NCBI GenBank assembly: GCA_037141795.1
Contig: JBAXBV010000012.1
Location: 1,987-65,986, forward strand
Reading direction: 5' to 3'
DNA: 64,000 bases
Source of the DNA: Betaproteobacteria bacterium
Lineage (GTDB): Bacteria; Pseudomonadota; Gammaproteobacteria; Burkholderiales; Ga0077523
Below are positions 34,778-51,353 of this stretch, one piece after another; the first letter of the stretch is position 1, and every line of letters starts with the position of its first letter. A program made the translations under genes and the position numbers. Under the pieces are notes generated by a model. That model searched no databases, was not told where the DNA came from, and saw only the letters and a list, made by a program, of their open reading frames with translations.

Positions 34778-36124
34778 TCACTCGGGGGCGTCCCCCGGCC
34801 CGGACAGGTCGGCGATGAATCGGTAGAGGTCGTCGAGCCTGAAGGGCTTGCTGATGAAATCGTCCATGCCGGCCTCGAGGCAGTTTTCCCGGTCCGACGC
34901 GAAGGCACTGGCGGTGACGGCCACGATCCGCGGCTGCTTCGCCAGCGGCAGCGCCCGGATGATCCGTGTGGCCTCCAGGCCGTCCATCTCCGGCATCTGC
35001 ACGTCCATGAACACGACGTCATAGTCACCCTGCCGGACCTTCGCCACGGCTTCCACGCCGGTTTCCGCGAGGTCGGGGCCGAGGCCGAGACGCTGCAGGA
35101 GGGCCTGGGCGAGTTTCTGGTTGACGAGGTTGTCGTCCACCACCAGCACGCGCATCGGCGCGATGGTCCTGCCTGTGAAGAGTGGCGAGCTGCGCACCGG
35201 TTCGGGCTCGCTGCCGGCCTCGAGCCGCAGTTCGACGTGGAAGCTGGTCCCCACACCCCGGGCTGTCCGTACCCGGATGTCCCCGCCCATCGCCCGCGCG
35301 AGCCGTGCGCTGATGGCGAGGCCCAGGCCGGTTCCGCCATAGCGCCGCGTGGTGGATGCGTCCCCCTGGGTGAAGGCGTCGAACAGTGCGTCCACACGGT
35401 CGTCGGGGATGCCGATGCCCGTGTCCGCCACCTCCAGTGCCAAGAGCACCCGGTCCGCGTCCCGCCGTGTCCGGCAGCGGACCGCCACGTTCCCGACGTG
35501 GGTGAACTTGATGGCGTTGGACAGGAGGTTGGACACGATCTGCCCGATCCGAACGCTGTCGCCCCGCAGGTACCGGATACCTGCGTCCGAGGTGTCGATG
35601 GTCATGCCGATGTGCCGGGCCGCGGCGACCGGGCGGTGCAGGGCCCCGATGGCCTGCAGCACCCGGGCGAGGTCGAAATCGCGGATCTCGAGTTCGAGCC
35701 GGTCGGCGTCGATCTTGGAGAAATCGAGGACGTCGTTGAGCACCACCAGGAGGGTGTCGCCACTGGCGCGGATGGCTTCGACGTACTCCTGCTGGGTGGT
35801 GTTCAGCGGGGAGGAGGTCAGCAGTTCCGTCATGGCCAGCACGCCGTGCAGCGGCGTGCGGATCTCGTGGCTCATCACCGCGAGGAAGTTGCTCTTCGCA
35901 CGGGCCGCGGCCTCGGCGCGGTCCCGGGCATCGGCGAGTTCCCGGGTGCGCTCGCGCACCTGCTGCTCCAGTTGCTGGGCTGCCTCGCGCAGGCCTTCGT
36001 TGGCCTCGTAGAGTTCGCGGCTTTTCTGCTCCAGCATGCGCTCGGCCTGGGCGCGTGCTTCCCGCTCCCGGGCGAGGCGGCGCTCCAGGCGTGCGATCCG
36101 GTCGGCGGCGGCCTCGTCCGTCAC
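34778..36124 (-). CDS. Hybrid sensor histidine kinase/response regulator, cytoplasmic, H-NOX-associated
   Basis: In-frame tail (448 aa) of ORF 34778..36715(-). The GTG start overlaps the H-NOX stop (GTGA). Coiled coil, H-box SHEIRTPLHG, N-box NLLSNAIKFT, DTGIGI, GGTGLGLAIS. Receiver domain VLVVDDN...FMDVQMPEMDG...SKP. No TM segments. Confidence 0.85.
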   Translation of the reverse strand: MTDEAAADRIARLERRLAREREARAQAERMLEQKSRELYEANEGLREAAQQLEQQVRERTRELADARDRAEAAARAKSNFLAVMSHEIRTPLHGVLAMTELLTSSPLNTTQQEYVEAIRASGDTLLVVLNDVLDFSKIDADRLELEIRDFDLARVLQAIGALHRPVAAARHIGMTIDTSDAGIRYLRGDSVRIGQIVSNLLSNAIKFTHVGNVAVRCRTRRDADRVLLALEVADTGIGIPDDRVDALFDAFTQGDASTTRRYGGTGLGLAISARLARAMGGDIRVRTARGVGTSFHVELRLEAGSEPEPVRSSPLFTGRTIAPMRVLVVDDNLVNQKLAQALLQRLGLGPDLAETGVEAVAKVRQGDYDVVFMDVQMPEMDGLEATRIIRALPLAKQPRIVAVTASAFASDRENCLEAGMDDFISKPFRLDDLYRFIADLSGPGDAPE

Positions 36125-36657
36125 CTCGTGGTCCGAAGGGTGAATTCGTCGCTGCCGTCGGGCATGGCCCGCCGCGCCACGCTGACGGGCTGTCCGTAGT
36201 GTTCGATGCAGCCCTCGATCAGCCCGGCCGCCAGGTCGCCCATCCTGCGGGGCGAACGATAGACCATGACCATGCTGCCGTCCGCGCCGCGGGTGATGTC
36301 GAACCGTGGCAACTGCGCGTCCGGGTACAGCTTGAGGACTTCCACGTGGATCACGCGTTCGATGCGTTCCAGGAAGTCCAGCGCGGTGTCCACGCCCCCG
36401 AAGAAGTGCGGGTACAGGTGGAAGAAGCGGCCGAACATGTGGTGCCCGAAGGTTTGCACCAGCAGGTGCACGGGGGCGCCGGTGCGGTCGGACAGGGCCT
36501 GGACCATGGCGACCATCTCGGAGTGGTCGTAGGTCCCCACGGTCGTGTAGGCACCGCCGGACGGGAGGTCGGCGGCCTCGATGATGTCGTCGACCATGTC
36601 CTCGGAGAACTTCTCCGAAACCATGTCCAGGAACTCGCAGAACACGATGCCTTTCAA
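36121..36657 (-). CDS. hnoX: H-NOX (haem nitric oxide/oxygen binding) sensor protein
   Basis: Last 178 aa of ORF 36121..37287(-). TTG start behind GGGAGGAG. LKGIVFCEFLDMV N-terminus, proximal His region IERVIHVEVLKLYPD, and Y-x-S-x-R motif (VYRSPRR). Aligns by eye with Shewanella H-NOX. Confidence 0.85.
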   Translation of the reverse strand: MKGIVFCEFLDMVSEKFSEDMVDDIIEAADLPSGGAYTTVGTYDHSEMVAMVQALSDRTGAPVHLLVQTFGHHMFGRFFHLYPHFFGGVDTALDFLERIERVIHVEVLKLYPDAQLPRFDITRGADGSMVMVYRSPRRMGDLAAGLIEGCIEHYGQPVSVARRAMPDGSDEFTLRTTR

Positions 36658-36748: not shown

Positions 36749-37477
36749 TCAGCCGAGGGCGTGCCAGCCGGCCGCTTCGGCAGCGGCCGGCCCGTCGTCC
36801 GACAGGACGGCGGCATCCTCCAGGGGCGAACCCTCCAGCCAGGGCAGGGTGGAATGGCTGATGGACCAGTGTCCGCAGGCATCCACTCGGGCCAGGCTGA
36901 TCTCGAAATCCAGCCGGTCGCGCATCTCGTCCAGGTCGAGGTGGGCGCACCAGGCCGCGAGGCTCGAGGCGGGGCCGAGCAGCCCGGCGCGAGGCCGGAC
37001 ACGCATGGCGAAGTCGCCGCTGCGCAGCAGCCATGTGCCAGGGGGGTCACCCTGGCGCAGGGCTGCCCACGGACCGACGCTGCCCGGAAGGCGCTCCCAG
37101 ATCTCGAAGTAGTCCTGCTGCACGCCGTACTCGAGCAGGCGGTCGCCCGACTCGAATTCGAGGCGTCCCACGTCCTCGAAGCCGGAGGGCGGCTGGTAGT
37201 CCACGTGGCGGTGCCACCGGCAGAGATCGCCCTCGACCGTCGTGACGCCCGCGAACCCCTGCTGGGACGCGAGCGACAGCAGGGCACCCCGCCCGAGTTC
37301 CGCCAGCGACCGGGCCCCGGACAGCGGCGGCCGGTCCGCGGGAATGCGCAGGTCGGCGTGCCACCGCGGCGTCTGCAGCCAGAAGACCTGGGAGGTCGTG
37401 TCCTCGGATTCCGGGGTGCGCAGCAGGGCTCGCCTCCAGACGCCGAGGCAGGTGTCCGGCACGGAGGCGGTGGTCAT
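36749..37477 (-). CDS. Hypothetical protein, no family recognised
   Basis: Track ORF 36749..37525(-), with likely start MTTASVPDT at 37477, overlapping the upstream SBP stop (ATGA). Trp-rich (FWLQTPRWHADLRIP, LCRWHRHVDYQPP). GC3-rich coding look. Confidence 0.6.
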   Translation of the reverse strand: MTTASVPDTCLGVWRRALLRTPESEDTTSQVFWLQTPRWHADLRIPADRPPLSGARSLAELGRGALLSLASQQGFAGVTTVEGDLCRWHRHVDYQPPSGFEDVGRLEFESGDRLLEYGVQQDYFEIWERLPGSVGPWAALRQGDPPGTWLLRSGDFAMRVRPRAGLLGPASSLAAWCAHLDLDEMRDRLDFEISLARVDACGHWSISHSTLPWLEGSPLEDAAVLSDDGPAAAEAAGWHALG

Positions 37478-38481
37478 CTTTTCAGCAAGGCATCGATGAA
37501 GCGGGTGCTCATGGTGTCCTCGCACTTCGGCAGCCTCGGGATCTGGTCCTTCGCCCTGAGGATATCCGCGATCGCCGCGCAGGCGGTGTAGAAGGATTCC
37601 GGCCTCGGCGAGCGCGTGAATGCCTGGAGCATCTCCGGCAGGCTGAGCGCGTGGATGGTCTGCTGCTGCGCCAGCACCTCGGCATCCGTGATGCCGAGTG
37701 CCTTGCCGATGATCTTCGCGGCCTCGGCCGGTCGGGTGCGGATCATTTCCAGGCCATCGAGATAGCCCTGCATCACCGCCTGGATCAGTTCCGGCCGGGC
37801 CTTCATGCCCTTGTCGGTAAACACGAGCACGTCCGACAGCAGGCCGGGGGACTGCTTCGACGAGTAGATCACGTGGAACCGTTTGCCGCCGTCCATGGCC
37901 GTGATCTGGGACACCATCGGTTCGTAGGTGACACCGATCCTCACCTGGCCGGAGGCCATGGCGGCCGGCACGGCCTCGGGCCCGGCGCCCACGGGCTGGA
38001 TGTCGCCATCCTTCAGGCCGTGCTTGCGCAGCGCGAAGGCGAGCAGGAAGTCCGACGGCGACAGGGGCGCGAAGGCGACCTTCTGACCCTTCAGGGCAGG
38101 GATGCCCCTGATGTCGGTGGTGGCGACCACCGCATCACCGCCGTCCGAGAAATCGAGCGGCATCACGGCGCGCATGGTGTCCCCCTTGGCCACCTGCCCG
38201 ACCAGCTGGTCGTAGGTGATGAAGCCGCCGTCCAGGGCGCCGCCCATGATGGCGCCGGGGAGCAGCGCGGGGTCGGTGAAGTTCTGCAGGGTGACCTTGA
38301 GGCCGTACTTTTTCCACAGATCCAGGGACTCGGCGATGTAGAGGGGGCCGTAGCCGATCCAGGTGACCACGCCCAGCTTCACGGGCTTCTGCGTGGCGGC
38401 GGTGGCGGTCAGTGGCGCCAGCAGGGAAAGGCTGACGAGGGCGCCGACGGCGGCACGGCGGAGGTGATTCAGTGCGGACAT
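37474..38481 (-). CDS. NitT/TauT-family ABC transporter substrate-binding protein (NMT1/THI5-like), orphan copy
   Basis: 335 aa with signal peptide. VTWIGYGPLYIAE...ITYDQ...SPSDFLL...IGVTYEP. About 55% identical by eye to the SBP at 47076..48077. No adjacent permease or ATPase. Confidence 0.85.
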   Translation of the reverse strand: MSALNHLRRAAVGALVSLSLLAPLTATAATQKPVKLGVVTWIGYGPLYIAESLDLWKKYGLKVTLQNFTDPALLPGAIMGGALDGGFITYDQLVGQVAKGDTMRAVMPLDFSDGGDAVVATTDIRGIPALKGQKVAFAPLSPSDFLLAFALRKHGLKDGDIQPVGAGPEAVPAAMASGQVRIGVTYEPMVSQITAMDGGKRFHVIYSSKQSPGLLSDVLVFTDKGMKARPELIQAVMQGYLDGLEMIRTRPAEAAKIIGKALGITDAEVLAQQQTIHALSLPEMLQAFTRSPRPESFYTACAAIADILRAKDQIPRLPKCEDTMSTRFIDALLKR

Positions 38482-38523
38482 GGGATCTCCCGGGGATGCG
38501 CAATCGATGGGGCGGGGGCTGTC

Positions 38524-39300
38524 TCAGTGCCATTCCCGGACGGCGATGGTGCCGCCCCAGAAGGCGAGATCGTGGTTGGGCCAGAGGCTCGCACCGGTGT
38601 CCTTCGCCAGGGCCTTGAGCTTGCGGATGCTCCCCAGGGCGAGGTCCTCGCGGTCGCGCCAGCACAGCCCCGGAGCGACTTCGTGCTCCAGATTCTCGGT
38701 GAGGTCCGCGGCGTCGCCGCACAGCAGGACGGGAGCCCCCTTTTCCCGTTCGATCCAGAGGGACATGTGCCCCGCCGTGTGGCCGGGCGTCGCGATGGCG
38801 CGCACGCCCGGGGCCACGTCGTACTCGCCCTGCATTTCGCGGAACCGGTGGTTCCCTGCGAAATCGTCGGGGAAGTAGCCCGCGTCCTCCCGGGCGCGCG
38901 CGGCTGCCAGTTCGTCCGCCTGCACGTGGATCTCGCATCCGGGCACGTCGCAGAGTCCGCCGGCGTGGTCGAAATGGAGATGGCCGAGGAAGACGACGTC
39001 GAGGTCCGCCGCCGTGAGCCCGAGCCGGGCGAAGTGCGCGGGCAGGCGCTGGGACGGCTCCATGTCGGGGGCGCCGTAGTCGAAGACCTCCGGCGCGTAG
39101 TAGCGGGCGCGCTTCTCCGGGTCGGCGATCTTCGAGTAGTCGCAGCCCACGTCGTAGAGGATGCGCCCGTTGGGGGTCTCGACCAGATAGGCCAGGATCG
39201 GCGCCTGCACCACCACGCCGGCGCCGCGGTTGCGGGTCGACAGGGTCTTCTCGTACCGGTGTGTCCCGGTGAGCAGGGCCGTGAGCCGGATGCCGCGCAT
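38524..39300 (-). CDS. MBL-fold metallohydrolase, AiiA-type lactonase-like
   Basis: Track ORF 38524..39486(-), with start moved to MRGIRL (39300). HLHFDHAGG zinc motif and later TPGHTAGH. Confidence 0.8.
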   Translation of the reverse strand: MRGIRLTALLTGTHRYEKTLSTRNRGAGVVVQAPILAYLVETPNGRILYDVGCDYSKIADPEKRARYYAPEVFDYGAPDMEPSQRLPAHFARLGLTAADLDVVFLGHLHFDHAGGLCDVPGCEIHVQADELAAARAREDAGYFPDDFAGNHRFREMQGEYDVAPGVRAIATPGHTAGHMSLWIEREKGAPVLLCGDAADLTENLEHEVAPGLCWRDREDLALGSIRKLKALAKDTGASLWPNHDLAFWGGTIAVREWH

Positions 39301-39941
39301 CAGCCCTCCTCCAGGACACGCACCAGGTCGTCCACGGCCGCCACGGCGCCGAAGACGCCGCCTTCGACCCCGATCATGCGCAGCGCCGCATCGTGGAGAT
39401 CGGGGTAGGCGGAGGCACAGGCATCGGCCAGGGTGATGCAGCGGAAGCCGCGGTCGATGGCCGTGCGCAGCGTCGAACTCACGCATACCTCGGTGGTGAT
39501 GCCGCAGAGGATCAGCGTGCGGATGCCGCGGGCGAGGAGCATCGAGCCCAGCGCCGTACCCTCGAACGCGGAGAATCCGGGCTTGTCGATGGCGATCTCC
39601 CCGGTTCGGGGCGCCAGTTCGTCGATGATCCCCGCCCCGGGTTCCCCGCGGATCAGCAGCCTCCCGAGCGGTCCGTCGCTGCCGACGGGGGCGCCGGTGC
39701 GCGCGGTGGCATCCCGGAAGGCGGGCGGCACGTCCGAGAGGTCCGGCGCGTTGGCCTCGCGGGTGTGCACGATCACGATGCCGGCTTCCCGGGCCGCCTT
39801 CAGGATTCGCGCGACGCCGGGGATCGCCCGCCGCAGCAGTGTGATGTCGAGTCCGGCCTTCGCAGCGTACCCGCGGGGGTCGAGGAAGTCGCGCTGCATG
39901 TCGATGACGATGAGCGCGGTGCTCTGCCAGTCGAGGTTCAT
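39300..39941 (-). CDS. Isochorismatase-family cysteine hydrolase (N-carbamoylsarcosine amidase/nicotinamidase-like)
   Basis: 213 aa. Asp-Lys-Cys triad context: LIVIDMQRDF, IDKPGFSAF, CGITTEVCVSST. Confidence 0.85.
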   Translation of the reverse strand: MNLDWQSTALIVIDMQRDFLDPRGYAAKAGLDITLLRRAIPGVARILKAAREAGIVIVHTREANAPDLSDVPPAFRDATARTGAPVGSDGPLGRLLIRGEPGAGIIDELAPRTGEIAIDKPGFSAFEGTALGSMLLARGIRTLILCGITTEVCVSSTLRTAIDRGFRCITLADACASAYPDLHDAALRMIGVEGGVFGAVAAVDDLVRVLEEG

Positions 39942-39971
39942 GGTGGGCTCCGTGGTGGCTCTCTTCGGTGG

Positions 39972-40742
39972 TCAGTCGAACTCCCGGCGCACCGCGTGGG
40001 CGATCTGTTCCGTGAGTTCATCCACCATCAGGTCTCCCTTCTCCCGCGACGCCGCCCGGGCCGACGACAGCACGCCGGAGGGGGGCACCAGTTCCGTCTG
40101 TGGCGGGTACATCTCGTAGGGCGGGAAGTTCGCGGGGCCGTCGTCGGGGATGAGGTCGAGCCGGACGAGGTCGGGGTGGTAGTGCAGCATCATGGAGGTC
40201 TCCAGCACCGCCGCGTGTTCCAGCGCGTAGCCGGGGAAGCCCTCGGGAAAGATCTTCGAGAGGGTCGGGGCGGTGAAGAAGTCCCAGTAGTCCATGCGCA
40301 TGATGGACAGGGGTGGCGTGGCGCCGAATTCGCGCATGGCGAGATCGATGCCTTCGATGAGGAACCACTGATTCTCGTAGTGGCCGTTGCACAGCACCAG
40401 TTTCTTCACGCCGTGGCGGGCGAATTCCCGGACGGTGTCGCGGACCTGTGCCACGAGCGTGGCACCGTCCAGACTGGTGGTACCGCAGAAGTGCTGCCCG
40501 CCGCCGCACTTGGGCTGGGACTTGAAGCCGTAGGCCAGCGGCGGGGCGACGATGCCCGACACGGCCGAGGCGACGCTCTGGGCCACGGCCGTGGCGAGGA
40601 GGTGGTCGGTGCCGAGGGGAAGGTGGGGGCCGTGCTGCTCGGTGGCGCCGCAGGGCAGGAACACCACCGGCTCGTCCCGCTGGACGCGGTCTCGGTAGTC
40701 GGTCCAGCTCATGCGGTTCATCAGGACTTCTTTCGTGCTCAT
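39972..40742 (-). CDS. Creatininase-family amidohydrolase
   Basis: Last 256 aa of ORF 39972..41594(-), starting MSTKEVLMNRMSW. Family motif GATEQHGPHLPLGTD and later NGHYEN. The ATG overlaps the upstream stop (ATGA). Confidence 0.85.
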   Translation of the reverse strand: MSTKEVLMNRMSWTDYRDRVQRDEPVVFLPCGATEQHGPHLPLGTDHLLATAVAQSVASAVSGIVAPPLAYGFKSQPKCGGGQHFCGTTSLDGATLVAQVRDTVREFARHGVKKLVLCNGHYENQWFLIEGIDLAMREFGATPPLSIMRMDYWDFFTAPTLSKIFPEGFPGYALEHAAVLETSMMLHYHPDLVRLDLIPDDGPANFPPYEMYPPQTELVPPSGVLSSARAASREKGDLMVDELTEQIAHAVRREFD

Positions 40743-41653
40743 GGCGACCTCGTGGTTCGTGGGAGAGTGGTGTCGGCGGGTGGGGGCGGGTCGACGGAGA
40801 ACGCTTCCAGCAGTGCGGCGGACGTGATGAGGGCGGCCCCGGCCCACCCGCCGGCGTCCAGCCGCTCGCCGGAGATCAGCATGGCCGAGGCCACGGCTGT
40901 CAGCAGTTCGAAGATGACCAGCACGGCGGCGCGTCCCGCCTCGAGATTGGAGACGCCGTAGGTCTGGGTGCCCATGGCGGCCGTCAACCACAGGCCGGCG
41001 AACGCCGCCAGGCCTGCAGCAAGCCCGGCGGAGATGGGGGGCAGGCCGTGGCGTGCCACGGGAATCAGGGCGGCCCCCACCACGGCGCACCCGACGAAGG
41101 CGATGAGGGTCTTGGGCAGCACCGGCACGCGGTCGGAGGCCCGGGCGCAGATGTTCTGGGACGCGTAGAACAGGCCGGCCCCCACCGCCGCGAGATCGAG
41201 CAGGCCGGGGGGTTGCGCCAGGATGGCCGGGCCGCCCAGCACCAGAAAGGCCCCGGCGATGGCCAGCACCGCACCGGCGGCCCGCAGTCTGGTGATGCGC
41301 TCGCCCAGGAACAGGCGCCCGCCCAGCACGCCCCACACGGGCACGAGGTAGAAAAGCAGCATGGACCGGGCGACCTCGCCGAACATGACGGCGGTGGTGA
41401 AGCACGCATTGGCGAGCCCGCAGAAGGCGGCTGCCCCGGCCACCAGCCGCCACTGCGGCAGCCACTGGAGCCGCAGGCGGAAGATCCACGGCAGCGCCAC
41501 GACACCCACCAGCCCGTAAGTGCAGAGCGTCATGGTGAGGCCCGTGAGCCCCTGGGACGCGAAGTGCTTGAGGGGGATCCAGGCGGTCCCCCACAGGACG
41601 CCGCTCAGCAGCAGCGACAGGACGGCGAGACCCGGTGCCCCCGCGCCGGTCAC
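40739..41653 (-). CDS. EamA/DMT family transporter
   Basis: 304 aa with about 10 TM segments. Confidence 0.8.
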   Translation of the reverse strand: MTGAGAPGLAVLSLLLSGVLWGTAWIPLKHFASQGLTGLTMTLCTYGLVGVVALPWIFRLRLQWLPQWRLVAGAAAFCGLANACFTTAVMFGEVARSMLLFYLVPVWGVLGGRLFLGERITRLRAAGAVLAIAGAFLVLGGPAILAQPPGLLDLAAVGAGLFYASQNICARASDRVPVLPKTLIAFVGCAVVGAALIPVARHGLPPISAGLAAGLAAFAGLWLTAAMGTQTYGVSNLEAGRAAVLVIFELLTAVASAMLISGERLDAGGWAGAALITSAALLEAFSVDPPPPADTTLPRTTRSP

Positions 41654-41654
41654 G

Positions 41655-42686
41655 TCAGACGACCGTCAGGAACGACACGCCGTGCGCGCCCATGAAGCCG
41701 TCGGCGCGCCGGGGGCCGGCGCGGACGCTGCCGTAGTCCTCTCCGAGCACCCGGTTGACGCGGTTGCGGTGGAACGTGCGCAGCAATTCCCGCAGGGGCA
41801 ACAGACAGGGCGTGGCATCGCCGTAGAGTTCGCGGTGCAGGGCGGGCAGGCGGTACCAGGGTACCGACGCGCGCTCGTGGTGGGCGTTGTGGTAGCCGAA
41901 GTTGAGCGTGAGGAGGTTCAGCACAGGGTGGCGGGTGGACACCACGTTGGAGTAGGTGTTGGCCTGCTCGAAGGCGCGGTCCCGGCCGTTCATGGGCACC
42001 TCGACGTTCTCGTCGCTGGTGAAGTACTGGTCGAAGGTGTGGTGGAAGGCGTCGAAGAAATTGAGCGTGGTGAGCAGCAGCCAGTAGGCCGCGGCGTAGC
42101 CGGCGAGTGCCCAGGGCGAGACGACCCAGAGCGCCGCGAACAGGGCGAGACGGCTGATCAGGACCGCCAGCACCCGGCCGCGCCGGTCCCGCTCCCGGGC
42201 GTGGGTGAACGGCCGCCAGAGCAGCTGGGCGTGCATGAGCATTTCGACGGCGGGCACGTGGGCCCACTCGAGGGTGCGCACCAGCCGGCGCAGCGCGGGG
42301 TGACGCTGCAGCAGAGCCTTGTAGTCGAACACGGTGACGTCCGCGCGGTCCCGGTGGTGGCGCAGGTGCATGTGACGGATGCGCTCGAAGGACGCGTAGG
42401 CCGCCCCGCAGATCCAGCCGGCGAGCTCGCCCGTCAGGCGGTTGTGCCGGGGGTCGCGGAACAGGGTGAAGTGCGCCGCTTCGTGAATGAGATACGCAGC
42501 GATGACCATGGTGTGGGCGCACAGCAATATCCCGGCCATCACCGGCAGCACGGACGGGCGGGTCAGCAGGATCAGGGCGAGCAGGTGGCCGAGGGTGACG
42601 TAGCCGATCGCCAGCGAATTGGGCAGGACGCCTTCGCGTTCGCGCATCAGACCCCGATAGGGCATGTCCCGGGTTGCTTGTGGCAT
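41655..42686 (-). CDS. Integral-membrane fatty-acid-desaturase-superfamily di-iron protein (paralogue A)
   Basis: His boxes HEAAH, HLRHH, HNAHH, with hydrophobic segments between them. Ends GVSFLTVV. By alignment with paralogue B the true start may be the internal MREREG (42647). Confidence 0.8.
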   Translation of the reverse strand: MPQATRDMPYRGLMREREGVLPNSLAIGYVTLGHLLALILLTRPSVLPVMAGILLCAHTMVIAAYLIHEAAHFTLFRDPRHNRLTGELAGWICGAAYASFERIRHMHLRHHRDRADVTVFDYKALLQRHPALRRLVRTLEWAHVPAVEMLMHAQLLWRPFTHARERDRRGRVLAVLISRLALFAALWVVSPWALAGYAAAYWLLLTTLNFFDAFHHTFDQYFTSDENVEVPMNGRDRAFEQANTYSNVVSTRHPVLNLLTLNFGYHNAHHERASVPWYRLPALHRELYGDATPCLLPLRELLRTFHRNRVNRVLGEDYGSVRAGPRRADGFMGAHGVSFLTVV

Positions 42687-42812
42687 GGGCGGACTCCACT
42701 GGATTGCGGGGGCGGTCGCAAAGCGCTACCGTTGCGTGATGAGTACAAATGTAGCATTAAAAATAGGCGCATTTATCGTTCCTGCCAACCTGTGTACCGG
42801 GCGGGCGGCGGG

Positions 42813-43280
42813 ATGAGCGAGGGCAGACGCAACGCGTCCTCGGGGCGGGCGCGGGTCTCCGCCGGAGAGGCGGCCGGGGGCGTGGGCAAGGCTGGTGCAG
42901 GCAGGGCCGGCGCGCGTTCCGTCGCGGTGCGTGAAGTCGGCCGGCGGACCCGCTTTCTTCGTGGCCTGAGGGAACTGGACACGGCCTGGGTCGAGTCCTT
43001 TCACGAGACCGGCCTGTCGGATGTCTATTTCTCCCGCCTGTTCACGGAACTGTGGCTGCGCGGGGACATGCCGGTTCCGAAGACCGATGCCTACAGCTAC
43101 GTGAAGGGCGTCGGGGTGCAGACCGCCATGAAGTACGTGAAGCGCGCGATCGACCAGGGCTACCTGGAGGAACTCGACAACCCCGCCGACGGCCGGTCCC
43201 GGCTGATCCGGATGACTCCCCGGTTGCGGACCGCTTTCGAGTCGGTCATCGACCGCGCGGCGGCAGCCTTCGGCCTCTGA
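42813..43280 (+). CDS. MarR-like winged-helix regulator (divergent from the desaturase cluster)
   Basis: In-frame tail of ORF 41520..43280(+). GVQTAMKYVKRAIDQGYLEELDNPADGRSRLIRMTPRL resembles a MarR recognition helix plus wing. The N-terminal 40 aa are low-complexity, so the start is uncertain. Confidence 0.55.
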   Translation: MSEGRRNASSGRARVSAGEAAGGVGKAGAGRAGARSVAVREVGRRTRFLRGLRELDTAWVESFHETGLSDVYFSRLFTELWLRGDMPVPKTDAYSYVKGVGVQTAMKYVKRAIDQGYLEELDNPADGRSRLIRMTPRLRTAFESVIDRAAAAFGL

Positions 43281-43489: not shown

Positions 43490-45088
43490 ATGTTCAATCG
43501 TTCCATTCTCGCGACCGCCGTCGTGGCCGCCCTGGCGTCCATGGCGGGACAGGCGGCCCACGCTGCCACCGGACCCAGCAGTTCCCAGACGCCCTACATC
43601 ACCCCGACTGCCGCCGGCTGGTCGGTGACCTCGATCCTGACGGTGGGCGATTCCGTCAACAACAAGCCCGATGGCACGCCGTACAGGATGGTGGGCATCC
43701 CCGATGGCCTCGGTGCCTATGACAGCGGAGTGAAGAGCTTCGGTGGCGTCGACTACGACACGGTCACGGTGCTGATGGCTCACGAACTCGGGAGCTCCTC
43801 CGGCATCACCCGGGCGCACGGGGCGGCAGGCGCCTTCGTCTCCGAGTGGGTGATCAGCAAGAGCGATTTCCGGGTCCTGAACGGTAGCGACCTGATCACC
43901 TCGCATCAGGTCGCGACCGGGTCGGGTACCTGGGGCGCCGCATCCGGGGCCGCCAACAGTTTCAATCGCTTCTGCTCTGCGGACCTGCCCGCCGTGTCCG
44001 CCCTCTACAACGCGGCGACCGGCCTCGGCACCCAGGCCCGAATCTTCATGAACGGCGAGGAAGCTGGCGCCGAAGGTCGCGCCTACGGCATCGTCGCGAC
44101 CGGCTCCGACAAGGGCAAGGCCTACCAGCTGCCGAGCCTCGGGCGCTTTTCCTGGGAGAACTCGCTTGCCAACCCCTATTCCGGAAACCGCACCGTGGTG
44201 ATCGGCACGGATGACAGCTCTCCCGGTCAGGTGTACCTGTACGTGGGCAACAAGAGCAACACCGGCAACGAGATCCAGAAGGCGGGCCTCGACGGGGGGT
44301 CCCTCTACGGTATCGCGGTGGCCGGCAAGCCCACCGAGACGAACAACGCGATCCCCGCCACGGGGTCGTTCACGGCGGTCGCCCTGAGCAACAACCAGTG
44401 GAACAGCACGGGAGCCAGTCTGCAGACCGAGAGCACCACCAAGGGCGTCACCGAGTTTGCTCGTCCCGAGGACGGCCACTGGGCAGACGAGAAGACCTTC
44501 TACTTCGTCACCACGGGGCGCAGCACGGTGCAGGGCAAGCTCTACAAGATGGACTTCAATGCCACCCTCGGCGACGGCTCGGTGGATTACACGCAGGGCG
44601 CAATCTCCGTGATTCTCGACTCCACCAATGTCACCGGCAAGGATGGGGCCAAGGTAACCATCGCCGGCTTCGACAACATGACGGTGACCAACGACGGGAA
44701 GATCATCATCCAGGACGATCCCGGCAACAACGCCTACAACGCGAAGACCTGGCTGGTGGACCCGAGTACCGGTGCCTACGAGCAGATCTTCGAGTCCGAT
44801 CGGACGCGGTTCGGGACGTCCCAGGCGGGTAATGCGCTCCCGGCAACGGCACCCTTCAGCACCGATGAGGAAAACTCGGGCGTGATCGAGGTCACGGACG
44901 TGCTGAACCGCAACGACGGCAACCGCTATTTCCTGGGCGTGATGCAGGCCCACTACGGGATCAGCGGCGAACTCGTGGAGGGCGGCCAGCTTTACGTGAT
45001 GGCCGTGCCGGAACCGGAAACCTACGCCCTGATGGGGGCCGGTCTCGGCCTGCTGGGTGTTGTCGCCCGGCGTCGCCGGAAGGCCTGA
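43490..45088 (+). CDS. Secreted PEP-CTERM-anchored protein, PhoX/DUF839 (COG3211)-like beta-propeller
   Basis: Tail of ORF 43052..45088, starting MFNRSILATAVVAALASMAGQAAHA (signal peptide). GIPDGLGAY...LMAHEL, GRFSWEN, RPEDGHW, FDNMTV...IIQDDPGNN resemble PhoX-family blocks. C-terminal VPEPETYALMGAGLGLLGVVARRRRKA is a PEP-CTERM sorting signal. Confidence 0.75.
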   Translation: MFNRSILATAVVAALASMAGQAAHAATGPSSSQTPYITPTAAGWSVTSILTVGDSVNNKPDGTPYRMVGIPDGLGAYDSGVKSFGGVDYDTVTVLMAHELGSSSGITRAHGAAGAFVSEWVISKSDFRVLNGSDLITSHQVATGSGTWGAASGAANSFNRFCSADLPAVSALYNAATGLGTQARIFMNGEEAGAEGRAYGIVATGSDKGKAYQLPSLGRFSWENSLANPYSGNRTVVIGTDDSSPGQVYLYVGNKSNTGNEIQKAGLDGGSLYGIAVAGKPTETNNAIPATGSFTAVALSNNQWNSTGASLQTESTTKGVTEFARPEDGHWADEKTFYFVTTGRSTVQGKLYKMDFNATLGDGSVDYTQGAISVILDSTNVTGKDGAKVTIAGFDNMTVTNDGKIIIQDDPGNNAYNAKTWLVDPSTGAYEQIFESDRTRFGTSQAGNALPATAPFSTDEENSGVIEVTDVLNRNDGNRYFLGVMQAHYGISGELVEGGQLYVMAVPEPETYALMGAGLGLLGVVARRRRKA

Positions 45089-45111: not shown

Positions 45112-45141
45112 GGGGGACGTCCACGGGCGTTCCCCGTTTTT
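45112..45141 (+). terminator. Rho-independent terminator after the PEP-CTERM gene
   Basis: GGGGGACG-tccacggg-CGTTCCCC (8 bp including one G-U), followed by G-TTTTT. Lies 24 nt after the stop. Confidence 0.55.
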
Positions 45142-45168: not shown

Positions 45169-45963
45169 TTAGTGCATCAGCTCGCCGTTGCTCGCGACCA
45201 GCGACTGGCCGGTGATGGCCCTCGCGTCGTCCGAGGCGAGGAACAGGTAGACGCCGGCGATGTCCGCGGGCTCGAGCAGGGTCGGGAAGGCCTGCGACGC
45301 GAGGATTTCCTGCAGCAGGACGTCTTCGGACACGCCGCGCTCCCCGGCCATGGCCGCGAGCGAGCGCATCGAGGCCTCGGTGCGCACCCAGCCGGGACAG
45401 ACCGCGTTGACCCGAATGCCGCGCGGCGCGAGTTCCCGTGCGAGGGATCGGGTGAGGCCCAGGACCGCGTGCTTGCTGGCCACGTAGGCGGAGAATCCGC
45501 CCACGGCCGTGTGGCCCCAGATCGAGGACTGATTGATGATGCTGCCGCCTGGTCGCAGGTGCGGCAGCAGCGCGCGGGTGATTCGCAGCATCGAGGTCAC
45601 GTTGTTGTCCATCAGCCACTGCCAGCGGTCCATGGCCTCGGGGCGGGAGTCGTCCACGGGCGTGGGGTATTCGGTGCCCGCGTTGTTGACGAGCACGCCC
45701 ACGTGGCCGAGTGCCTGCGCGATGTCCGCCTGGACCCGCCGGACGTCGGCGTCGGTGTTGAGATCGGCGCTGAAGCCGTGGACCTCGGCCTGCCCGGACA
45801 GCGCGCGGGCCGCGTCGGCCACCCGGCTGGCGTCCCGATCCAAGAGGGCGAGGCGGGCGCCCTGTGCCGCGAAGGCCGTGGCGATGCCCCGGCCGATGCC
45901 TGTCGCCGCCCCGGTGATGACTACCGGGACATTGTCGAGGCCGTAGCGGGGGGAGGTGGACAC
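45169..45963 (-). CDS. Short-chain dehydrogenase/reductase (SDR)
   Basis: 264 aa. TGAATGIGRGIA and YVASKHAV motifs. Begins 13 nt after the desaturase-like gene. Confidence 0.9.
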   Translation of the reverse strand: MSTSPRYGLDNVPVVITGAATGIGRGIATAFAAQGARLALLDRDASRVADAARALSGQAEVHGFSADLNTDADVRRVQADIAQALGHVGVLVNNAGTEYPTPVDDSRPEAMDRWQWLMDNNVTSMLRITRALLPHLRPGGSIINQSSIWGHTAVGGFSAYVASKHAVLGLTRSLARELAPRGIRVNAVCPGWVRTEASMRSLAAMAGERGVSEDVLLQEILASQAFPTLLEPADIAGVYLFLASDDARAITGQSLVASNGELMH

Positions 45964-45976
45964 GACGCCGTGCGCC

Positions 45977-46981
45977 TCAGACCGCCGTGAGGAACGAGAC
46001 GCCTACCGCGCCGAGGAAGCGATCGGCCTTGCCCGGCCCGTCGCCCACCTCGCCGTAGTCGCTTGCCAGGACCCGGCGTACGCGGTCGCGGTGGTATCCG
46101 CGCAGCAGTTCCCGCATGGGAATCACCTGCCGGTACGCGCCGGGGAACAGCTGCTCGTGCAGCGCCGGCAACTCGTGCCACGCGGCAATGGGGCGTTCGT
46201 GGTGGGCGTTGTGGTAGGAGAAATTGAGCAGCAGCAGGTTGAGCCACGGGTGGCCCGCGGAGACGAGGTTCGAGTAGGTGTTGGCCTGCTCGTAGGCGCG
46301 GTCCCGCACCTTGTCGCCGGGGATTTCGCTGCCCTCGGGACCCGCGAAGGCGTCGTAGGTGTGCTGGTAGGCGTCGGCGAAGCGCAGCGCGTGCAGCATG
46401 AGGAGATAGGCCACGCCGTACAGCACGAGGGCCCGCGGGCTCAGCCAGGCCAGGGCGGCGAACGCGGCAATCCGCACGGCCAGCACCAGCACCACGCGCA
46501 GGCGGCCGTCACGGTGACCGGGGTCCAGGAAAGGCAGCGCGATCACGTAGCCGTGCATGAGGAACTCGACGGCAGGAATCCACGCCCACTCCAGGGCGAG
46601 CACCAGCCTGCGCAGCCACGCGGGCCAGCCATTCAGCACCTGACGGTATTCGACGGACACCACGTCCGCCCGGTCCAGGTGGTGGCGCATGTGCTTGCGC
46701 CGCAGGTTCGCGAAGCTGGCATAGGCGCTCCCGGTGACCCAGGTCATGAGGGTGCCCCACCGGTTGTTCGCCCCGGCCGTGCGGAACACCGACTGGTGGG
46801 CGAACTCGTGCAGGAAATACGCGGCGTAGACGAGGGTGTGGGCCGTCAGGAGCACGCCGAGCGCGTTCCAGCCCCAGTGGTCCGCCACGAGCAGGCACAC
46901 GCCCGCGGCATAGCCCGCCAGCGTGTAGGCCAGGGCAACGGTGTTGGGCAGCGCGCCCGTGTCGGATCGGAAAATCTTCAT
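45977..46981 (-). CDS. Integral-membrane fatty-acid-desaturase-superfamily di-iron protein (paralogue B)
   Basis: Track ORF 45977..47068(-), which has a GTG start. ATG at 46981 (MKIFRSDTGALPNTVALAY) aligns with paralogue A. His boxes HEFAH, HMRHH, HNAHH. Ends GVSFLTAV. Confidence 0.8.
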   Translation of the reverse strand: MKIFRSDTGALPNTVALAYTLAGYAAGVCLLVADHWGWNALGVLLTAHTLVYAAYFLHEFAHQSVFRTAGANNRWGTLMTWVTGSAYASFANLRRKHMRHHLDRADVVSVEYRQVLNGWPAWLRRLVLALEWAWIPAVEFLMHGYVIALPFLDPGHRDGRLRVVLVLAVRIAAFAALAWLSPRALVLYGVAYLLMLHALRFADAYQHTYDAFAGPEGSEIPGDKVRDRAYEQANTYSNLVSAGHPWLNLLLLNFSYHNAHHERPIAAWHELPALHEQLFPGAYRQVIPMRELLRGYHRDRVRRVLASDYGEVGDGPGKADRFLGAVGVSFLTAV

Positions 46982-48120: not shown

Positions 48121-48227
48121 GCTCTCCCGGGCTTTTATCCCTCCGTGGAGCTCCGTGAACCCGGAGCCGGGCCGCTCTCGGACCAGACGCCCTCGCTCAG
48201 CGCGATGGCCGGAACCCTAGCTGCCCT
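48121..48227 (-). promoter_or_regulatory. Guanidine-I (ykkC subtype 1) riboswitch, copy B
   Basis: The - strand reads GGGCAGCTAGGGTTCCGG...CTGGTCCGAGAGCGGCCC...CCACGGAGGGATAAAAGCCCGGGAGAGC. The three invariant ykkC blocks and a P1 closing helix are present. Confidence 0.8.
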
Positions 48228-48280
48228 CGACGATGTCCCGCGGGTGGCCACGAGACGACTTGCCGTTCGATCCCTCTTTC

Positions 48281-48577: not shown

Positions 48578-48622
48578 ACATCCGGAGCAAGAGAGGAGCG
48601 CACGACTGTGGCTCTTGTCGTT

Positions 48623-48722
48623 GTCGGCTAGGGTTCCGGGCGCGTCGAGCGCTGGCTGGTCCGAGAGCCGACGGTCCCGCCGTTCACCGCGGGGCTCCAC
48701 GGAGGGATAAAAGCCCGGGAGG
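48623..48722 (+). promoter_or_regulatory. Guanidine-I (ykkC subtype 1) riboswitch, copy A
   Basis: GTCGGCTAGGGTTCCGG...CTGGTCCGAGAGCCGAC...CCACGGAGGGATAAAAGCCCGGGAGG. P1 is GUCGGC/GCCGAC. All conserved blocks are present. Confidence 0.85.
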
Positions 48723-48754
48723 CCGAGTCGTTCGTCTGGTCCTCTCCCCTTTTT
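48717..48754 (+). terminator. Riboswitch A expression platform: candidate intrinsic terminator
   Basis: GGGAGG (3' end of the aptamer) can pair with TCTCCC (48743..48748), and is followed by C-TTTTT (48750..48754). Confidence 0.5.
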
Positions 48755-50529: not shown

Positions 50530-50560
50530 ACGCAACCCGGAACACCCAGGAGAACCCGTG

Positions 50561-51298: not shown

Positions 51299-51353
51299 AC
51301 GCAGGCGGTGGCCGGGCGCTGCCCGGCCACGCTTCGAGCCAAGGGAGGACATC

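Follow-up and report, generated by a model that had tools for sequence, protein, structure and literature searches.

A desaturase-like, creatininase-family and MgdL-like gene cluster in a betaproteobacterium corresponds to the distal half of a guanidine-linked array conserved in relatives

A guanidine-specific Gd-I riboswitch controls the guanidine-releasing hydroxylase/lyase pair MgdH/MgdL, of which MgdL was described in 2025 as an N-(hydroxymethyl)guanidine lyase and is reported to be narrowly specific (PMC12508155). An alignment in the same source already includes MgdL homologues from Betaproteobacteria and S. stutzeri. According to its NCBIfam model description, GntB is the arginine gamma-hydroxylase of guanitoxin biosynthesis, and its superfamily can therefore use a guanidino amino acid. 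A guanylurea hydrolase that releases guanidine has been reported as another isochorismatase-like hydrolase, and in Pseudomonas stutzeri a "fourth" creatinine pathway leads from creatinine to methylguanidine and a C2 acid, with acetate as the reported co-product. Here we compare these systems with a gene cluster, termed cluster A, from a 64,000-nucleotide stretch of betaproteobacterial DNA (the window).

Gene content of cluster A and of the neighbouring guanidine genes

Cluster A consists of seven closely packed minus-strand genes (36749-42686). The common orientation and short junctions described in an earlier, sequence-only reading agree with the gene calls: from DES-A downward, the junctions are a 1-nt gap, a 4-nt overlap, a 30-nt gap, a 1-nt overlap, a 42-nt gap and a 4-nt overlap. 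The features of cluster A and its upstream region are:

36749-37477, minus strand: MgdL-like protein, 242 aa (BLASTP against MgdL)
37474-38481, minus strand: SBP-A, NitT/TauT-type (NMT1) periplasmic binding protein (Pfam NMT1_2 and NMT1)
38524-39300, minus strand: AiiA/4-pyridoxolactonase-like MBL-fold hydrolase (Lactamase_B, 58 bits; HLHFDHAGG motif)
39300-39941, minus strand: isochorismatase-family cysteine hydrolase (PF00857, 146 bits)
39972-40742, minus strand: creatininase-family binuclear-metal amidohydrolase, variant subfamily (Pfam Creatininase, 208 bits)
40739-41653, minus strand: EamA/DMT-family membrane transporter (PF00892, 84 bits, two repeats)
41655-42686, minus strand: DES-A, FA_desaturase-like, putative membrane di-iron oxygenase (PF00487, 118 bits)
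42687-42812: divergent intergenic region with AT-rich core, probable promoter/operator of cluster A
42813-43280, plus strand: small winged-helix regulator, weakly MarR-like (MarR_2, 17 bits)

The window also holds the riboswitch-controlled B module and the guanidine carboxylase genes:

45169-45963, minus strand: SDR-B, short-chain dehydrogenase, final gene of the B module (adh_short_C2, 191 bits)
45977-46981, minus strand: DES-B, paralogue of the desaturase-like oxygenase, B-type clade
47076-48077, minus strand: SBP-B, riboswitch-controlled binding protein
48122-48231, minus strand: Guanidine-I aptamer controlling SBP-B, DES-B and SDR-B (RF00442, 83 bits; gathering score 63)
48617-48723, plus strand: Guanidine-I aptamer controlling the permease, ATPase and carboxylase operon (RF00442, 91 bits)
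48869-49684, plus strand: ABC permease
49663-50529, plus strand: ABC ATPase
50558-57486, plus strand: guanidine/urea carboxylase pathway (UAAP1, UAAP2, carboxylase, allophanate hydrolase)

UAAP1 and UAAP2 correspond to the CgdA/CgdB families (TIGR03425, 341 bits; TIGR03424, 347 bits), the carboxylase (52029-55628) matches TIGR02712 with 1905 bits and the allophanate hydrolase (55684-57486) gave a model match of 844 bits. A second SDR, known from relatives, is absent within the window. BLASTP comparison revealed 51% identity between DES-A and DES-B (333 aa, E=9e-108), which both end in GVSFLTxV, and 55% identity between SBP-A and SBP-B (301 aa, E=6e-129), in line with the earlier estimates of about 45-50% and about 55%, respectively.

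No permease or ATPase gene adjoins SBP-A, and the pair at 48869-50529 comprises the only translocator genes near SBP-A and SBP-B. In Pseudomonas-type arrays, permease and ATPase genes end the same operon that the binding protein opens. We infer that the orphan SBP-A shares the permease/ATPase at 48869-50529, which fits the single arrays of relatives. For the product of 40739-41653, previously called an EamA exporter, the family was recovered (84 bits); we term it a transporter, export being one possible direction.

The MgdL homologue and the other enzymes

The strongest mechanistic clue in cluster A is the homology of its last gene product to MgdL. Because third-position GC is 0.84-0.94 throughout the 242-aa frame, this open reading frame was taken as coding. 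Pfam and NCBIfam searches with the protein, which had been listed as unknown, gave no match. However, BLASTP with V. boliviensis MgdL (sequence from PMC12508155, Supplementary Data 1) gave 33% identity over 242 aa (E=1e-28), and D49, R51, D112 and E126 of MgdL align with D42, R44, D102 and E116, which are invariant in 35 of 35 sequences. D49/R51 have been tested by mutation and D112/E126 are predicted guanidine contacts (PMC12508155). Judged by its sequence, the 242-aa protein is an MgdL homologue. An AF2 model predicts a beta-barrel (pLDDT 94.7), with which Foldseek retrieved generic calycin-like barrels alone. The commonest immediate upstream neighbour of the MgdL-like gene is the MBL gene (17 of 48 metagenome loci) and, in loci with an orthologue of SBP-A, this orthologue usually has its place just before the MgdL-like gene. 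A desaturase-like gene lies at most 8 kb upstream in 15 of 22 MgdL-like metagenome loci, the other 7 lacking such a gene. One MgdL-like sub-clade sits after PAS-GGDEF-EAL signalling proteins.

DES-A carries invariant histidine boxes (H68/H72, H107/H110/H111, H266/H269/H270) plus H216. An NCBIfam search returned no equivalog for DES-A, with CrtW, DesA and GntB each scoring about 30 bits, and the desaturase-like family had no match among PDB sequences. For the AF2 model of DES-A (pLDDT 79), the best folds were a subunit of the chloroplast FtsHi motor complex and AlkB, the latter with a Foldseek TM of 0.39. DES-A falls into an A-type clade and DES-B into the B-type clade, whose genes almost always come after SBP-B. 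The contiguous operon encodes no oxygenase other than the desaturase-like enzyme, and at the S. stutzeri locus L076 eleven genes run from binding protein to ATPase without space for a further one. We propose that DES-A acts as a hydroxylase. Enzymes of the FA-desaturase type mostly have lipophilic substrates and require an electron donor; none is encoded in the cluster and no rubredoxin or ferredoxin partner was found nearby.

The creatininase homologue matches TIGR04448 with 365 bits, and since this is above the NCBI equivalog cut-off of 235 bits, it may simply be a creatininase. Against creatininase 1j2t of P. putida it reaches 273 bits, and it keeps the metal ligands E34, H36, D45, H120 and E183, and also H178, E122 and W154. 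The family named by the sequence-only reading thus stands, but the protein departs from the characterized enzyme at three positions (S78C, W174Y and D175A), so that creatinine is not assured as substrate. All 40 creatininase homologues linked to a desaturase-like gene differ at these positions (S78C, W174F/Y and D175A), 39-40 of them by the substitutions seen here.

The isochorismatase family proposed for the cysteine hydrolase was likewise recovered, whereas N-carbamoylsarcosine amidase, named there as a member of this family, is not its nearest relative: the protein scores 47 bits against that enzyme (1nba), compared to 206 bits against biuret hydrolase (6xjm) and 194/190 bits against the cysteine hydrolases 6xix/6xj4. 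Its NCBIfam match to BiuH (232 bits) is under the cut-off of 370, and where the TrtA structures have their active-site position, the alignment places a Cys. By sequence, the enzyme falls into the biuret/triuret hydrolase clade, which takes in enzymes for several small ureides. The best NCBIfam match of the MBL hydrolase is AiiA (130 bits; cut-off 375), next to 4-pyridoxolactonase (128 bits), both far under cut-offs, and it scores 103 bits against AiiA in the PDB.

Conservation and regulation of the array

In Pseudomonas, Stutzerimonas and Halopseudomonas, a single array behind a guanidine-I riboswitch contains genes for a binding protein, the desaturase-like enzyme, two SDRs, EamA, creatininase, cysteine hydrolase, MBL hydrolase, MgdL-like protein, permease and ATPase. 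Cluster A corresponds to the distal half of this array, which is contiguous in relatives, and represents one part of a split operon, not an independent module. Nine loci, among them L076, have carboxylase genes beside the array. The gene set is widely conserved, usually under a guanidine riboswitch, and the neighbourhood is kept in dozens of genomes. In a set of 57 species-representative loci that extend 6 kb or more downstream of the desaturase-like gene, partners were an SDR gene following it (39), creatininase (28), cysteine hydrolase (26), EamA (24), MBL (22) and the MgdL-like gene (20). Short riboswitch-linked arrays consist of genes for binding protein, desaturase-like enzyme, EamA, cysteine hydrolase, MBL hydrolase and MgdL-like protein, and five short arrays are without SDR and creatininase. 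Minimal modules, made up of a small regulator gene, a desaturase-like gene, an SDR gene and sometimes a creatininase gene, are in many cases not accompanied by guanidine genes.

Exactly two Guanidine-I aptamers were detected in the window with Rfam. In the gap upstream of DES-A no riboswitch was found, either by a permissive Rfam scan of 42600-42950 (E<=10) or by nhmmer, in agreement with the earlier statement that a ykkC element is missing there. This also holds beyond the window: a guanidine-I element was present in 0 of 26 divergent pairs of a small MarR-like gene and an A-type desaturase-like gene, and less than 450 nt upstream in 22 of 24 B-type arrays starting with SBP-B and the desaturase-like gene. 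Regulation differs between the paralogues, the B-type occurring mostly with and the paired A-type without riboswitch. The region 42687-42812 is the probable promoter/operator of cluster A; it contains the sole sigma-70-like match within 36-49 kb (42788-42760, minus strand), its AT-rich block (...GGAACG...CATTTTT...) is largely kept in alignments with relatives and no inverted repeat was found in it. The divergent placement of the regulator gene (42813-43280) is as previously noted, and its likeness to MarR is weak: it matches MarR_2 alone with 17 bits, MarR_2 is matched by 9 of 13 members of the orthologue set, and the orthologue profile matches MarR-family PDB chains with a best E of 4.5e-4. 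Orthologues show no conservation over its first ~40 residues, so that the start may be as late as 42927.

A proposed route to guanidine and its comparison with described systems

The recurrence of arrays behind a riboswitch, some beside carboxylase genes, argues for the suggested role in the metabolism of guanidine compounds and for the tie to the carboxylase genes. The gene set would most probably break down substituted or cyclic guanidines (of the creatinine or methylguanidine kind) and so supply guanidine as nitrogen source. On balance we lean towards a pathway in which the di-iron enzyme hydroxylates the carbon beside a guanidine nitrogen, lyase and hydrolases free guanidine, and the carboxylase pathway uses it. 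Gene identities, homology to MgdL, synteny and the linkage to riboswitches are observed, whereas the part played by the desaturase-like enzyme, the sequence of reactions and the starting compound are inferred. SBP-A and SBP-B would bring substrates to the single permease/ATPase at 48869-50529, and EamA may carry substrate or by-product. DES-A or DES-B would hydroxylate the carbon bonded to the guanidine nitrogen to form a hemiaminal, thereby filling the role of the 2-oxoglutarate dioxygenase MgdH in Vreelandella. The MgdL-like protein would cleave the hemiaminal to guanidine (or a simpler guanidine) and an aldehyde; alternatively, an SDR may oxidize it, giving an acylguanidine or a lactam. Cyclic, acyl and carbamoyl derivatives might be opened by the variant creatininase (creatinine belongs to the cyclic acylguanidines), by the AiiA-like MBL hydrolase and by the cysteine hydrolase that resembles biuret hydrolase. 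Cluster A would thus supply the distal part of an "upper pathway", conserved among relatives, from N-substituted or cyclic guanidines to free guanidine, placed here under a MarR-like regulator instead of a riboswitch, and the carboxylase genes about 6 kb away would assimilate the product. Guanidine would turn on both riboswitches, a product induction comparable to that of the MgdH/MgdL operon. Counting against this pathway are the lack of special affinity of the desaturase-like family to GntB over CrtW or DesA, the lipophilic preference and missing electron donor noted above, the narrow specificity reported for MgdL, with which the homologue here shares only 33% identity, MgdL-like genes lacking a desaturase-like partner, minimal modules away from guanidine genes, the equivalog-level score of the creatininase homologue and the missing second SDR.

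It seems rather unlikely to us that the genes form a funnel instead of a pathway, in which guanidine or nitrogen is salvaged by each enzyme from a compound of its own: by the desaturase-like enzyme and MgdL-like protein from methylguanidine, by the cysteine hydrolase from guanylurea or biuret-type ureides, and by the creatininase homologue and MBL hydrolase from cyclic or acyl guanidines, with several binding proteins feeding one ABC translocator. Relatives at four loci indeed have up to four different binding proteins around one permease/ATPase, and the modular make-up of short arrays and minimal modules and the ureide range of the cysteine hydrolase clade would suit such a funnel. However, gene order is strongly kept, the close packing of the genes for cysteine hydrolase, MBL hydrolase and MgdL-like protein suggests coupled steps, and SDR and creatininase tend to co-occur with the desaturase-like gene as consecutive steps would. 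Ordinary creatinine catabolism through creatine and an N-carbamoylsarcosine amidase-like step, with urea or sarcosine as end products and a urea carboxylase, would explain the creatininase scores, the intact catalytic residues and the fit of the carboxylase to a "urea carboxylase" model, but we consider it improbable: no creatinase, creatinine deaminase, hydantoinase or sarcosine oxidase was assigned in the cluster, the cysteine hydrolase is closer to biuret hydrolase, the creatininase departs at three positions in all 40 linked copies, and the operon stands behind guanidine riboswitches with an MgdL homologue.

That DES-A and DES-B are true lipid desaturases or hydroxylases remodelling the membrane under chaotropic guanidine stress, next to unrelated detoxification hydrolases, agrees with the Pfam assignment, with equally good weak matches to bacterial DesA and CrtW, and with neither an electron-transfer partner nor a soluble-substrate feature being evident. 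It is nevertheless very improbable, as across Beta- and Gammaproteobacteria the desaturase-like gene is operonic with binding protein, SDR, creatininase homologue, cysteine hydrolase and MgdL-like genes, and array transporter genes other than EamA are not of exporter type. Hardly any weight can be given to a function unrelated to guanidine, such as breakdown of acyl-homoserine lactones or of s-triazine-derived biuret/triuret beside guanidine genes by coincidence; AiiA and BiuH are the best NCBIfam matches of the two hydrolases, but far under curated cut-offs, the linkage to guanidine-I riboswitch and carboxylase genes recurs in many lineages, and the MgdL homologue is present.

Compared with described enzymes, the creatininase homologue shares family (PF02633, TIGR04448) and metal ligands with P. 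putida creatininase (PDB 1J2T/1V7Z) and differs in the three substitutions; unlike the creatininase-creatinase pathway, the array has a guanidine and not a urea/sarcosine context, without creatinase or sarcosine oxidase. BiuH and TrtA are the closest solved relatives of the cysteine hydrolase, which is about equidistant from both. The desaturase-like enzymes share with AlkB-type hydroxylases and GntB the His-box signature, a helical membrane fold by prediction and a dehydrogenase gene next door, but no close relative was found. The full array is found in genomes of Stutzerimonas stutzeri (L065, L076) and includes a creatininase homologue and putative enzymes processing methylguanidine-type hemiaminals; a link to the "fourth" creatinine pathway is purely circumstantial, as the strains differ and the acetate co-product is at odds with an oxidative route. 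Set against MgdH/MgdL, the locus has a membrane di-iron FA-desaturase type as sole oxygenase in place of a 2-oxoglutarate dioxygenase, adds SDRs, creatininase homologue, cysteine hydrolase, AiiA-like MBL hydrolase and EamA, and encodes a lyase homologue with only 33% identity to MgdL, in a half that lies beside a MarR-like gene and is without riboswitch. As in that system, both the D-x-R pair for catalysis and the Asp and Glu for guanidine binding are kept in the lyase homologue, a guanidine-I riboswitch, carboxylase genes and an ABC importer of the NMT1 type are linked to the genes and, in the logic proposed here, guanidine would be released from a substituted guanidine under product induction.

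Genes of cluster A and its surroundings

A group of seven co-directional, tightly packed genes on the minus strand, proposed in a sequence-only reading of this DNA, is borne out by the gene calls and by junctions that range from -4 to +42 nt (+1, -4, +30, -1, +42 and -4 nt from DES-A downstream). Each of the families named in that reading was confirmed by Pfam and NCBIfam, and the surroundings described there match what was found: the B module on the minus strand, in the order riboswitch, SBP-B, DES-B and SDR, and the carboxylase operon on the plus strand, in the order riboswitch, permease, ATPase, UAAP1, UAAP2, carboxylase and allophanate hydrolase. The desaturase-like paralogues DES-A and DES-B, estimated by eye to be about 45-50% identical, share 51% identity, and the 55% determined for the binding proteins SBP-A and SBP-B equals the earlier estimate. 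Third-position GC of 0.84-0.94 across the 242-aa frame at the end of the cluster supports its coding status.

Features of cluster A and of its surroundings, with the basis of assignment in parentheses
36749-37477, minus strand: MgdL-like gene, 242-aa ORF (BLASTP to MgdL)
37474-38481, minus strand: SBP-A, binding protein (Pfam/NCBIfam)
38524-39300, minus strand: MBL hydrolase (Pfam/NCBIfam)
39300-39941, minus strand: isochorismatase-family cysteine hydrolase (Pfam/NCBIfam)
39972-40742, minus strand: creatininase homologue (Pfam/NCBIfam)
40739-41653, minus strand: EamA (Pfam/NCBIfam)
41655-42686, minus strand: DES-A, FA_desaturase-like (Pfam/NCBIfam)
45169-45963, minus strand: SDR of the B module (last gene after SBP-B and DES-B)
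45977-46981, minus strand: DES-B (paralogue of DES-A)
47076-48077, minus strand: SBP-B (paralogue of SBP-A)
48122-48231, minus strand: Guanidine-I aptamer of the B module (Rfam)
48617-48723, plus strand: Guanidine-I aptamer of the carboxylase operon (Rfam)

Some further genes border these modules. Downstream of the MarR-like gene, a PhoX-like protein with a PEP-CTERM sorting signal is encoded at 43490-45088 (plus strand), followed by a terminator-like site (45123-45137, plus strand); this gene stands where relatives have a second SDR and looks like an insertion that divided an ancestral array. At the other end, about 90 nt after the MgdL-like gene and on the same strand, lies an H-NOX (HNOB) gene (about 36121-36657, minus strand), next to a hybrid histidine kinase/response regulator (34778 to about 36124, minus strand). 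The adjacency of MgdL-like and H-NOX genes recurs in two relatives (L084 and L108), and in four others (L001, L005, L006 and L088) the H-NOX gene is 4-5 kb farther off. The last gene of the carboxylase operon encodes a sodium:neurotransmitter symporter (SNF, PF00209; 57586-58950, plus strand), which might import a guanidino compound, by analogy, because the eukaryotic creatine transporter is a member of the same family.

A lyase homologue, three hydrolases and a desaturase-like protein

The 242-aa protein had been considered unknown, and it gave zero Pfam or NCBIfam matches; among its approximately 278 homologues, all named ones are labelled "hypothetical protein". An AF2 model built with 34 homologues (pLDDT 94.7) consists mainly of beta strands that form a beta-barrel. 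A Foldseek search with this model went no further than an uncharacterised yeast protein and generic barrels of the calycin-like kind; what identified the protein was the alignment in the supplement of PMC12508155. By sequence, the protein is a homologue of MgdL, the N-(hydroxymethyl)guanidine lyase of V. boliviensis (Supplementary Data 1 of PMC12508155), with 33% identity over 242 aa and E = 1e-28 in BLASTP, and its lyase activity is putative. In a joint alignment, residues D49, R51, D112 and E126 of MgdL correspond to D42, R44, D102 and E116 of the window protein and show no variation across all 35 sequences. D49 and R51 were required for MgdL activity in mutation tests, and D112 and E126 were predicted to grip the guanidine group (Sinn et al., PMC12508155). 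MgdL forms guanidine and formaldehyde from N-(hydroxymethyl)guanidine, which is provided by the 2-oxoglutarate dioxygenase MgdH (PMC12508155). The homologue alignment of that paper includes sequences from Betaproteobacteria and Stutzerimonas stutzeri, and in its accessible parts no discussion of their genomic context was found.

The creatininase homologue scores 365 bits with TIGR04448 (NCBIfam creatininase, EC 3.5.2.10; equivalog cut-off 235) and 273 bits with the P. putida enzyme. Residues E34, H36, D45, H120 and E183, which we take from the P. putida creatininase structures to be the binuclear metal ligands, and H178, presumably catalytic, are the same in all 41 sequences, and E122 and W154 are also kept in all 40 homologues that are linked to a desaturase-like gene. 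At positions 78, 174 and 175, which presumably line the substrate pocket, the window protein has C, Y and A instead of the S, W and D of the characterised enzyme, and the linked homologues carry S78C (40/40), W174F/Y (39/40) and D175A (40/40). Creatinine is a cyclic acylguanidine, and we read the linked homologues, from these sequences, as a distinct subfamily that would act on a creatinine-like substrate, not necessarily on creatinine, although the protein may be an ordinary creatininase.

For the cysteine hydrolase (PF00857, 146 bits), the comparison with PDB chains gave 206 bits for biuret hydrolase, 194 and 190 bits for 6xix and 6xj4, which we take to be triuret hydrolase, and 47 bits for N-carbamoylsarcosine amidase; the latter identity was ruled out by the difference between 47 and 206 bits. 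With 232 bits against BiuH (NF050097), under the equivalog cut-off of 370, the protein is by its score a member of the biuret/triuret hydrolase clade and not a BiuH orthologue. Its Cys in ITTEVCVSST aligns with the Cys of 6xix and with the Ser of 6xj4 and 6xjm, which are presumably active-site variants; the other two triad residues, Asp and Lys, were placed by visual inspection. The MBL hydrolase possesses the HxHxDH motif and obtains 130 bits with AiiA (NF045699; cut-off 375); it is AiiA-like or 4-pyridoxolactonase-like, at about one third of the curated cut-offs.

DES-A matches PF00487 with 118 bits, and the histidine boxes of the pattern HX3H, HX2HH and HX2HH (H68/H72, H107/H110/H111 and H266/H269/H270) are invariant in the family alignment. 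Against the characterised subfamilies CrtW, DesA, GntB, CrtR and AlkB, proteins of the DES type reach only about 20-32 bits (cut-offs 350-500), the family profile found zero matches in the PDB at E ≤ 0.01, and Foldseek returned only distant matches of the FA-desaturase/AlkB fold (TM 0.39 for AlkB). The protein belongs to none of the characterised subfamilies compared. A special kinship with the arginine hydroxylase GntB was ruled out, as CrtW, DesA and GntB are equally weak matches. No electron donor for the enzyme is encoded nearby. In a neighbour-joining tree, the family separates into two deep clades, a B-type that follows a binding protein and riboswitch and an A-type that follows the small regulator or an SDR.

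Conservation and regulation of the gene set

A profile scan for the desaturase-like family, with one genome per species, produced 79 loci to which the window proteins were mapped by tblastn. The nearest genomes were those of uncultured Burkholderiales and Rhodocyclaceae, with 73-76% identity. Stutzerimonas stutzeri, several Pseudomonas and Halopseudomonas (L065, L066, L070, L072, L075, L076, L080-L082) carry a single co-directional array for a binding protein, desaturase-like protein, SDR, SDR, EamA, creatininase, cysteine hydrolase, MBL, MgdL-like protein, permease and ATPase; a few of these loci are short of one gene, and carboxylase-pathway genes are found just upstream of the array in L076, L081 and L082. 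The order of the Burkholderiales/Rhodocyclaceae type is SBP-B, DES-B, SDR, SDR, DES-A, EamA, creatininase, cysteine hydrolase, MBL, SBP-A and MgdL-like, with an extra binding protein after the creatininase in some loci (L010, L012, L021, L023, L028, L054 and L055) and with a small divergent regulator between the second SDR and DES-A in L008, L011 and L026. The window shows this same order minus the second SDR, for which the best match in the window is an unrelated SDR (11089-11817), and its two halves are kept apart by the opposite-strand regulator gene and the PhoX-like PEP-CTERM gene.

Among the 57 loci with at least 6 kb of downstream sequence, the partners of the desaturase-like gene were SDR (39), creatininase (28), cysteine hydrolase (26), EamA (24), MBL (22), divergent small regulator (21) and MgdL-like protein (20). 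In the reciprocal, MgdL-anchored search of metagenome contigs, a desaturase-like gene was located at most 8 kb upstream in 15 of the 22 loci with enough upstream sequence, and the gene directly upstream of the MgdL-like gene encoded the MBL hydrolase in 17 of 48 metagenome loci, the cysteine hydrolase in 7 and SBP-A in 6. Short arrays (binding protein, desaturase-like, EamA, cysteine hydrolase, MBL and MgdL-like) also exist, as do minimal modules in which a regulator is divergent from a desaturase-like gene and an SDR, at times with a creatininase, and such desaturase-like/SDR modules are not close to guanidine genes. MgdL-like genes without a desaturase-like gene were encountered as well.

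In several relatives, the creatininase and cysteine hydrolase genes flank a gene for an NMT1 binding protein of a third type, with about 30-34% identity to SBP-A and SBP-B (L008, 12802-13563; L010, 7855-8616; L021, 12742-13602; L054, 12688-13503; also L029, L030 and L055); it is not present in the window, and up to four binding proteins surround one permease/ATPase in some loci. In one minimal module composed of small regulator, desaturase-like gene and SDR, a TauD-family 2-oxoglutarate dioxygenase gene adjoins the small regulator on the opposite strand (L002, 8493-9359; L003, 2905-3771). Genes for an MgdL-like sub-clade of 285-293 aa occur directly downstream of a gene for a PAS-PAS-GGDEF-EAL protein (L085, 6851-9879; L086, 6851-9858; L130, 5589-8771; L166, 5091-8717), with a 4-nt overlap of the two genes in L085 and L086. 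In L130 and L166, nhmmer (E about 1e-13 to 1e-17) places a guanidine-I-like element upstream of the MgdL-like gene, at a distance of a few kb; in L130 this is where the GGDEF-EAL gene has its 5' end. In this sub-clade, c-di-GMP signalling may be under guanidine-riboswitch control.

Rfam detected two Guanidine-I aptamers in the window, both outside cluster A, and upstream of DES-A no riboswitch was matched by Rfam, even at E ≤ 10, or by nhmmer with a profile built from seven confirmed guanidine-I aptamers. With the latter profile, 22 of the 24 arrays that begin with SBP-B and a desaturase-like gene showed a guanidine-I element in the 450 nt before them, and none of the 26 divergent pairs of small regulator and A-type desaturase-like gene had one nearby. 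Rfam-confirmed aptamers directly precede the binding-protein gene in L066, L076, L054 and L014. The description of cluster A as riboswitch-less is correct: the gap between DES-A and the regulator has no riboswitch. Behind this stands a general division, with a riboswitch in control of the B-type gene and, as we infer, a protein in control of the A-type gene.

The small regulator divergent from DES-A (42813-43280, plus strand) had been called MarR-like. The window protein itself stays under the Pfam MarR threshold (17 versus 27 bits), but 9 of 13 orthologues match MarR_2 (best E = 1.1e-4) and a profile of the orthologues finds MarR-family chains in the PDB (best E = 4.5e-4), weak but consistent indications of a MarR-like winged helix. 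The first ~40 codons of this ORF (42813-42927) are Gly/Ala/Arg-rich and unconserved in orthologues, and the true start may be the GTG at 42927, leaving 117 aa. The sole sigma-70-like match in 13 kb, a weak one, is located within the gap before DES-A (42788-42760, minus strand), and an AT-rich block (GGAACG...CATTTTT..., window 42730-42790) is largely kept in L001, L005, L006, L007, L009 and L011. No inverted repeat or palindrome was found in the gap (42687-42812), and the block may be a promoter or a candidate binding site of the MarR-like protein.

Possible routes to guanidine and comparison with known systems

Along with a single oxygenase and a homologue of a hemiaminal lyase, the guanidine-linked operon encodes three hydrolases, one or two dehydrogenases and an ABC importer with several binding proteins, and in several genomes it is found beside the guanidine carboxylase pathway. 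On balance, we favor as the most likely mechanism a membrane di-iron hydroxylation followed by release of guanidine by lyase or hydrolase. The membrane di-iron enzyme would hydroxylate a carbon bound to a guanidine nitrogen, the role of MgdH, and the MgdL-like protein would cleave the resulting hemiaminal. In an alternative branch, the SDR would oxidise the hemiaminal to an acylguanidine or lactam, which the variant creatininase, the MBL or the cysteine hydrolase would hydrolyse. The freed guanidine would induce the riboswitches and then be assimilated.

A more specific possibility, which we regard as rather unlikely, is that the array, which cultured Stutzerimonas stutzeri and Pseudomonas carry in full and the window in two pieces, constitutes an oxidative route from a creatinine-type cyclic guanidine via methylguanidine to guanidine, the 'fourth' creatinine pathway of P. 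stutzeri. Here, the desaturase-type membrane di-iron enzyme would hydroxylate the carbon next to the guanidine nitrogen, the SDR would oxidise the hemiaminal, the variant creatininase with the MBL and cysteine hydrolases would account for ring opening and deacylation, and the MgdL-like lyase would free guanidine. Concretely, creatinine would be converted to 5-hydroxycreatinine (creatol), its 5-oxo derivative, ring-opened oxalyl-methylguanidine, methylguanidine and finally guanidine, a sequence that fits the enzyme reaction types nearly one to one. The creatol route mirrors the non-enzymatic mammalian route. What makes this possibility attractive is that the array is present in S. stutzeri and that P. 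stutzeri has been reported to convert creatinine to methylguanidine; a 2025 review calls the enzyme responsible "not yet characterized". Also, the authors of the 2025 MgdH/MgdL paper (PMC12508155) state that no experimental evidence of enzymes producing methylguanidine is known to them.

If the favored hydroxylation and release mechanism is true, the array represents a new upper pathway for nitrogen scavenging from guanidine compounds that bears on urine- or wastewater-derived creatinine and possibly guanylurea, it adds a hydrophilic N-dealkylation role within the fatty-acid desaturase superfamily, and the paralogues of one pathway differ in their control, one by a riboswitch and the other by a regulatory protein. 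That superfamily mostly acts on lipophilic substrates. If the creatinine route were true, there would be a new reaction class for the superfamily and a biological source of environmental methylguanidine and guanidine, and vertebrate creatinine excretion would be tied to the guanidine riboswitch regulon. Guanidine riboswitches are widespread and, to our knowledge, the natural sources of guanidine and methylguanidine mostly still have to be found.

[quoted passage not shown] Taken singly, the pieces are of known kinds (riboswitch regulon, carboxylase pathway, MgdL family). Undescribed are the union of these pieces in one array, the accessory hydrolases within it and a membrane oxygenase that apparently takes the place of MgdH without being homologous to it. 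What emerges is a conserved set of about 11 genes in cultured pseudomonads, in the arrays examined mostly behind a guanidine-I riboswitch, in which an MgdL-type lyase is accompanied by three hydrolases and by an unrelated oxygenase bound to the membrane. An adjacent MgdH-type 2-oxoglutarate dioxygenase is absent at 36.7-58.9 kb and within the contiguous Pseudomonas-type arrays; in contrast to MgdH/MgdL of V. boliviensis, the sole oxygenase gene here is the FA_desaturase-like one. For the MgdH/MgdL operon, product induction by a guanidine-specific Gd-I riboswitch provides a precedent, and in V. boliviensis Gd-II reportedly responds to methylguanidine too. A Guanidine-II (mini-ykkC) aptamer just before the carboxylase gene was observed in L076 (1646-1693) and L073 (2504-2548). 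The adjacent array of L076 is itself preceded by a Guanidine-I aptamer, which gives the two-riboswitch layout reported for V. boliviensis.
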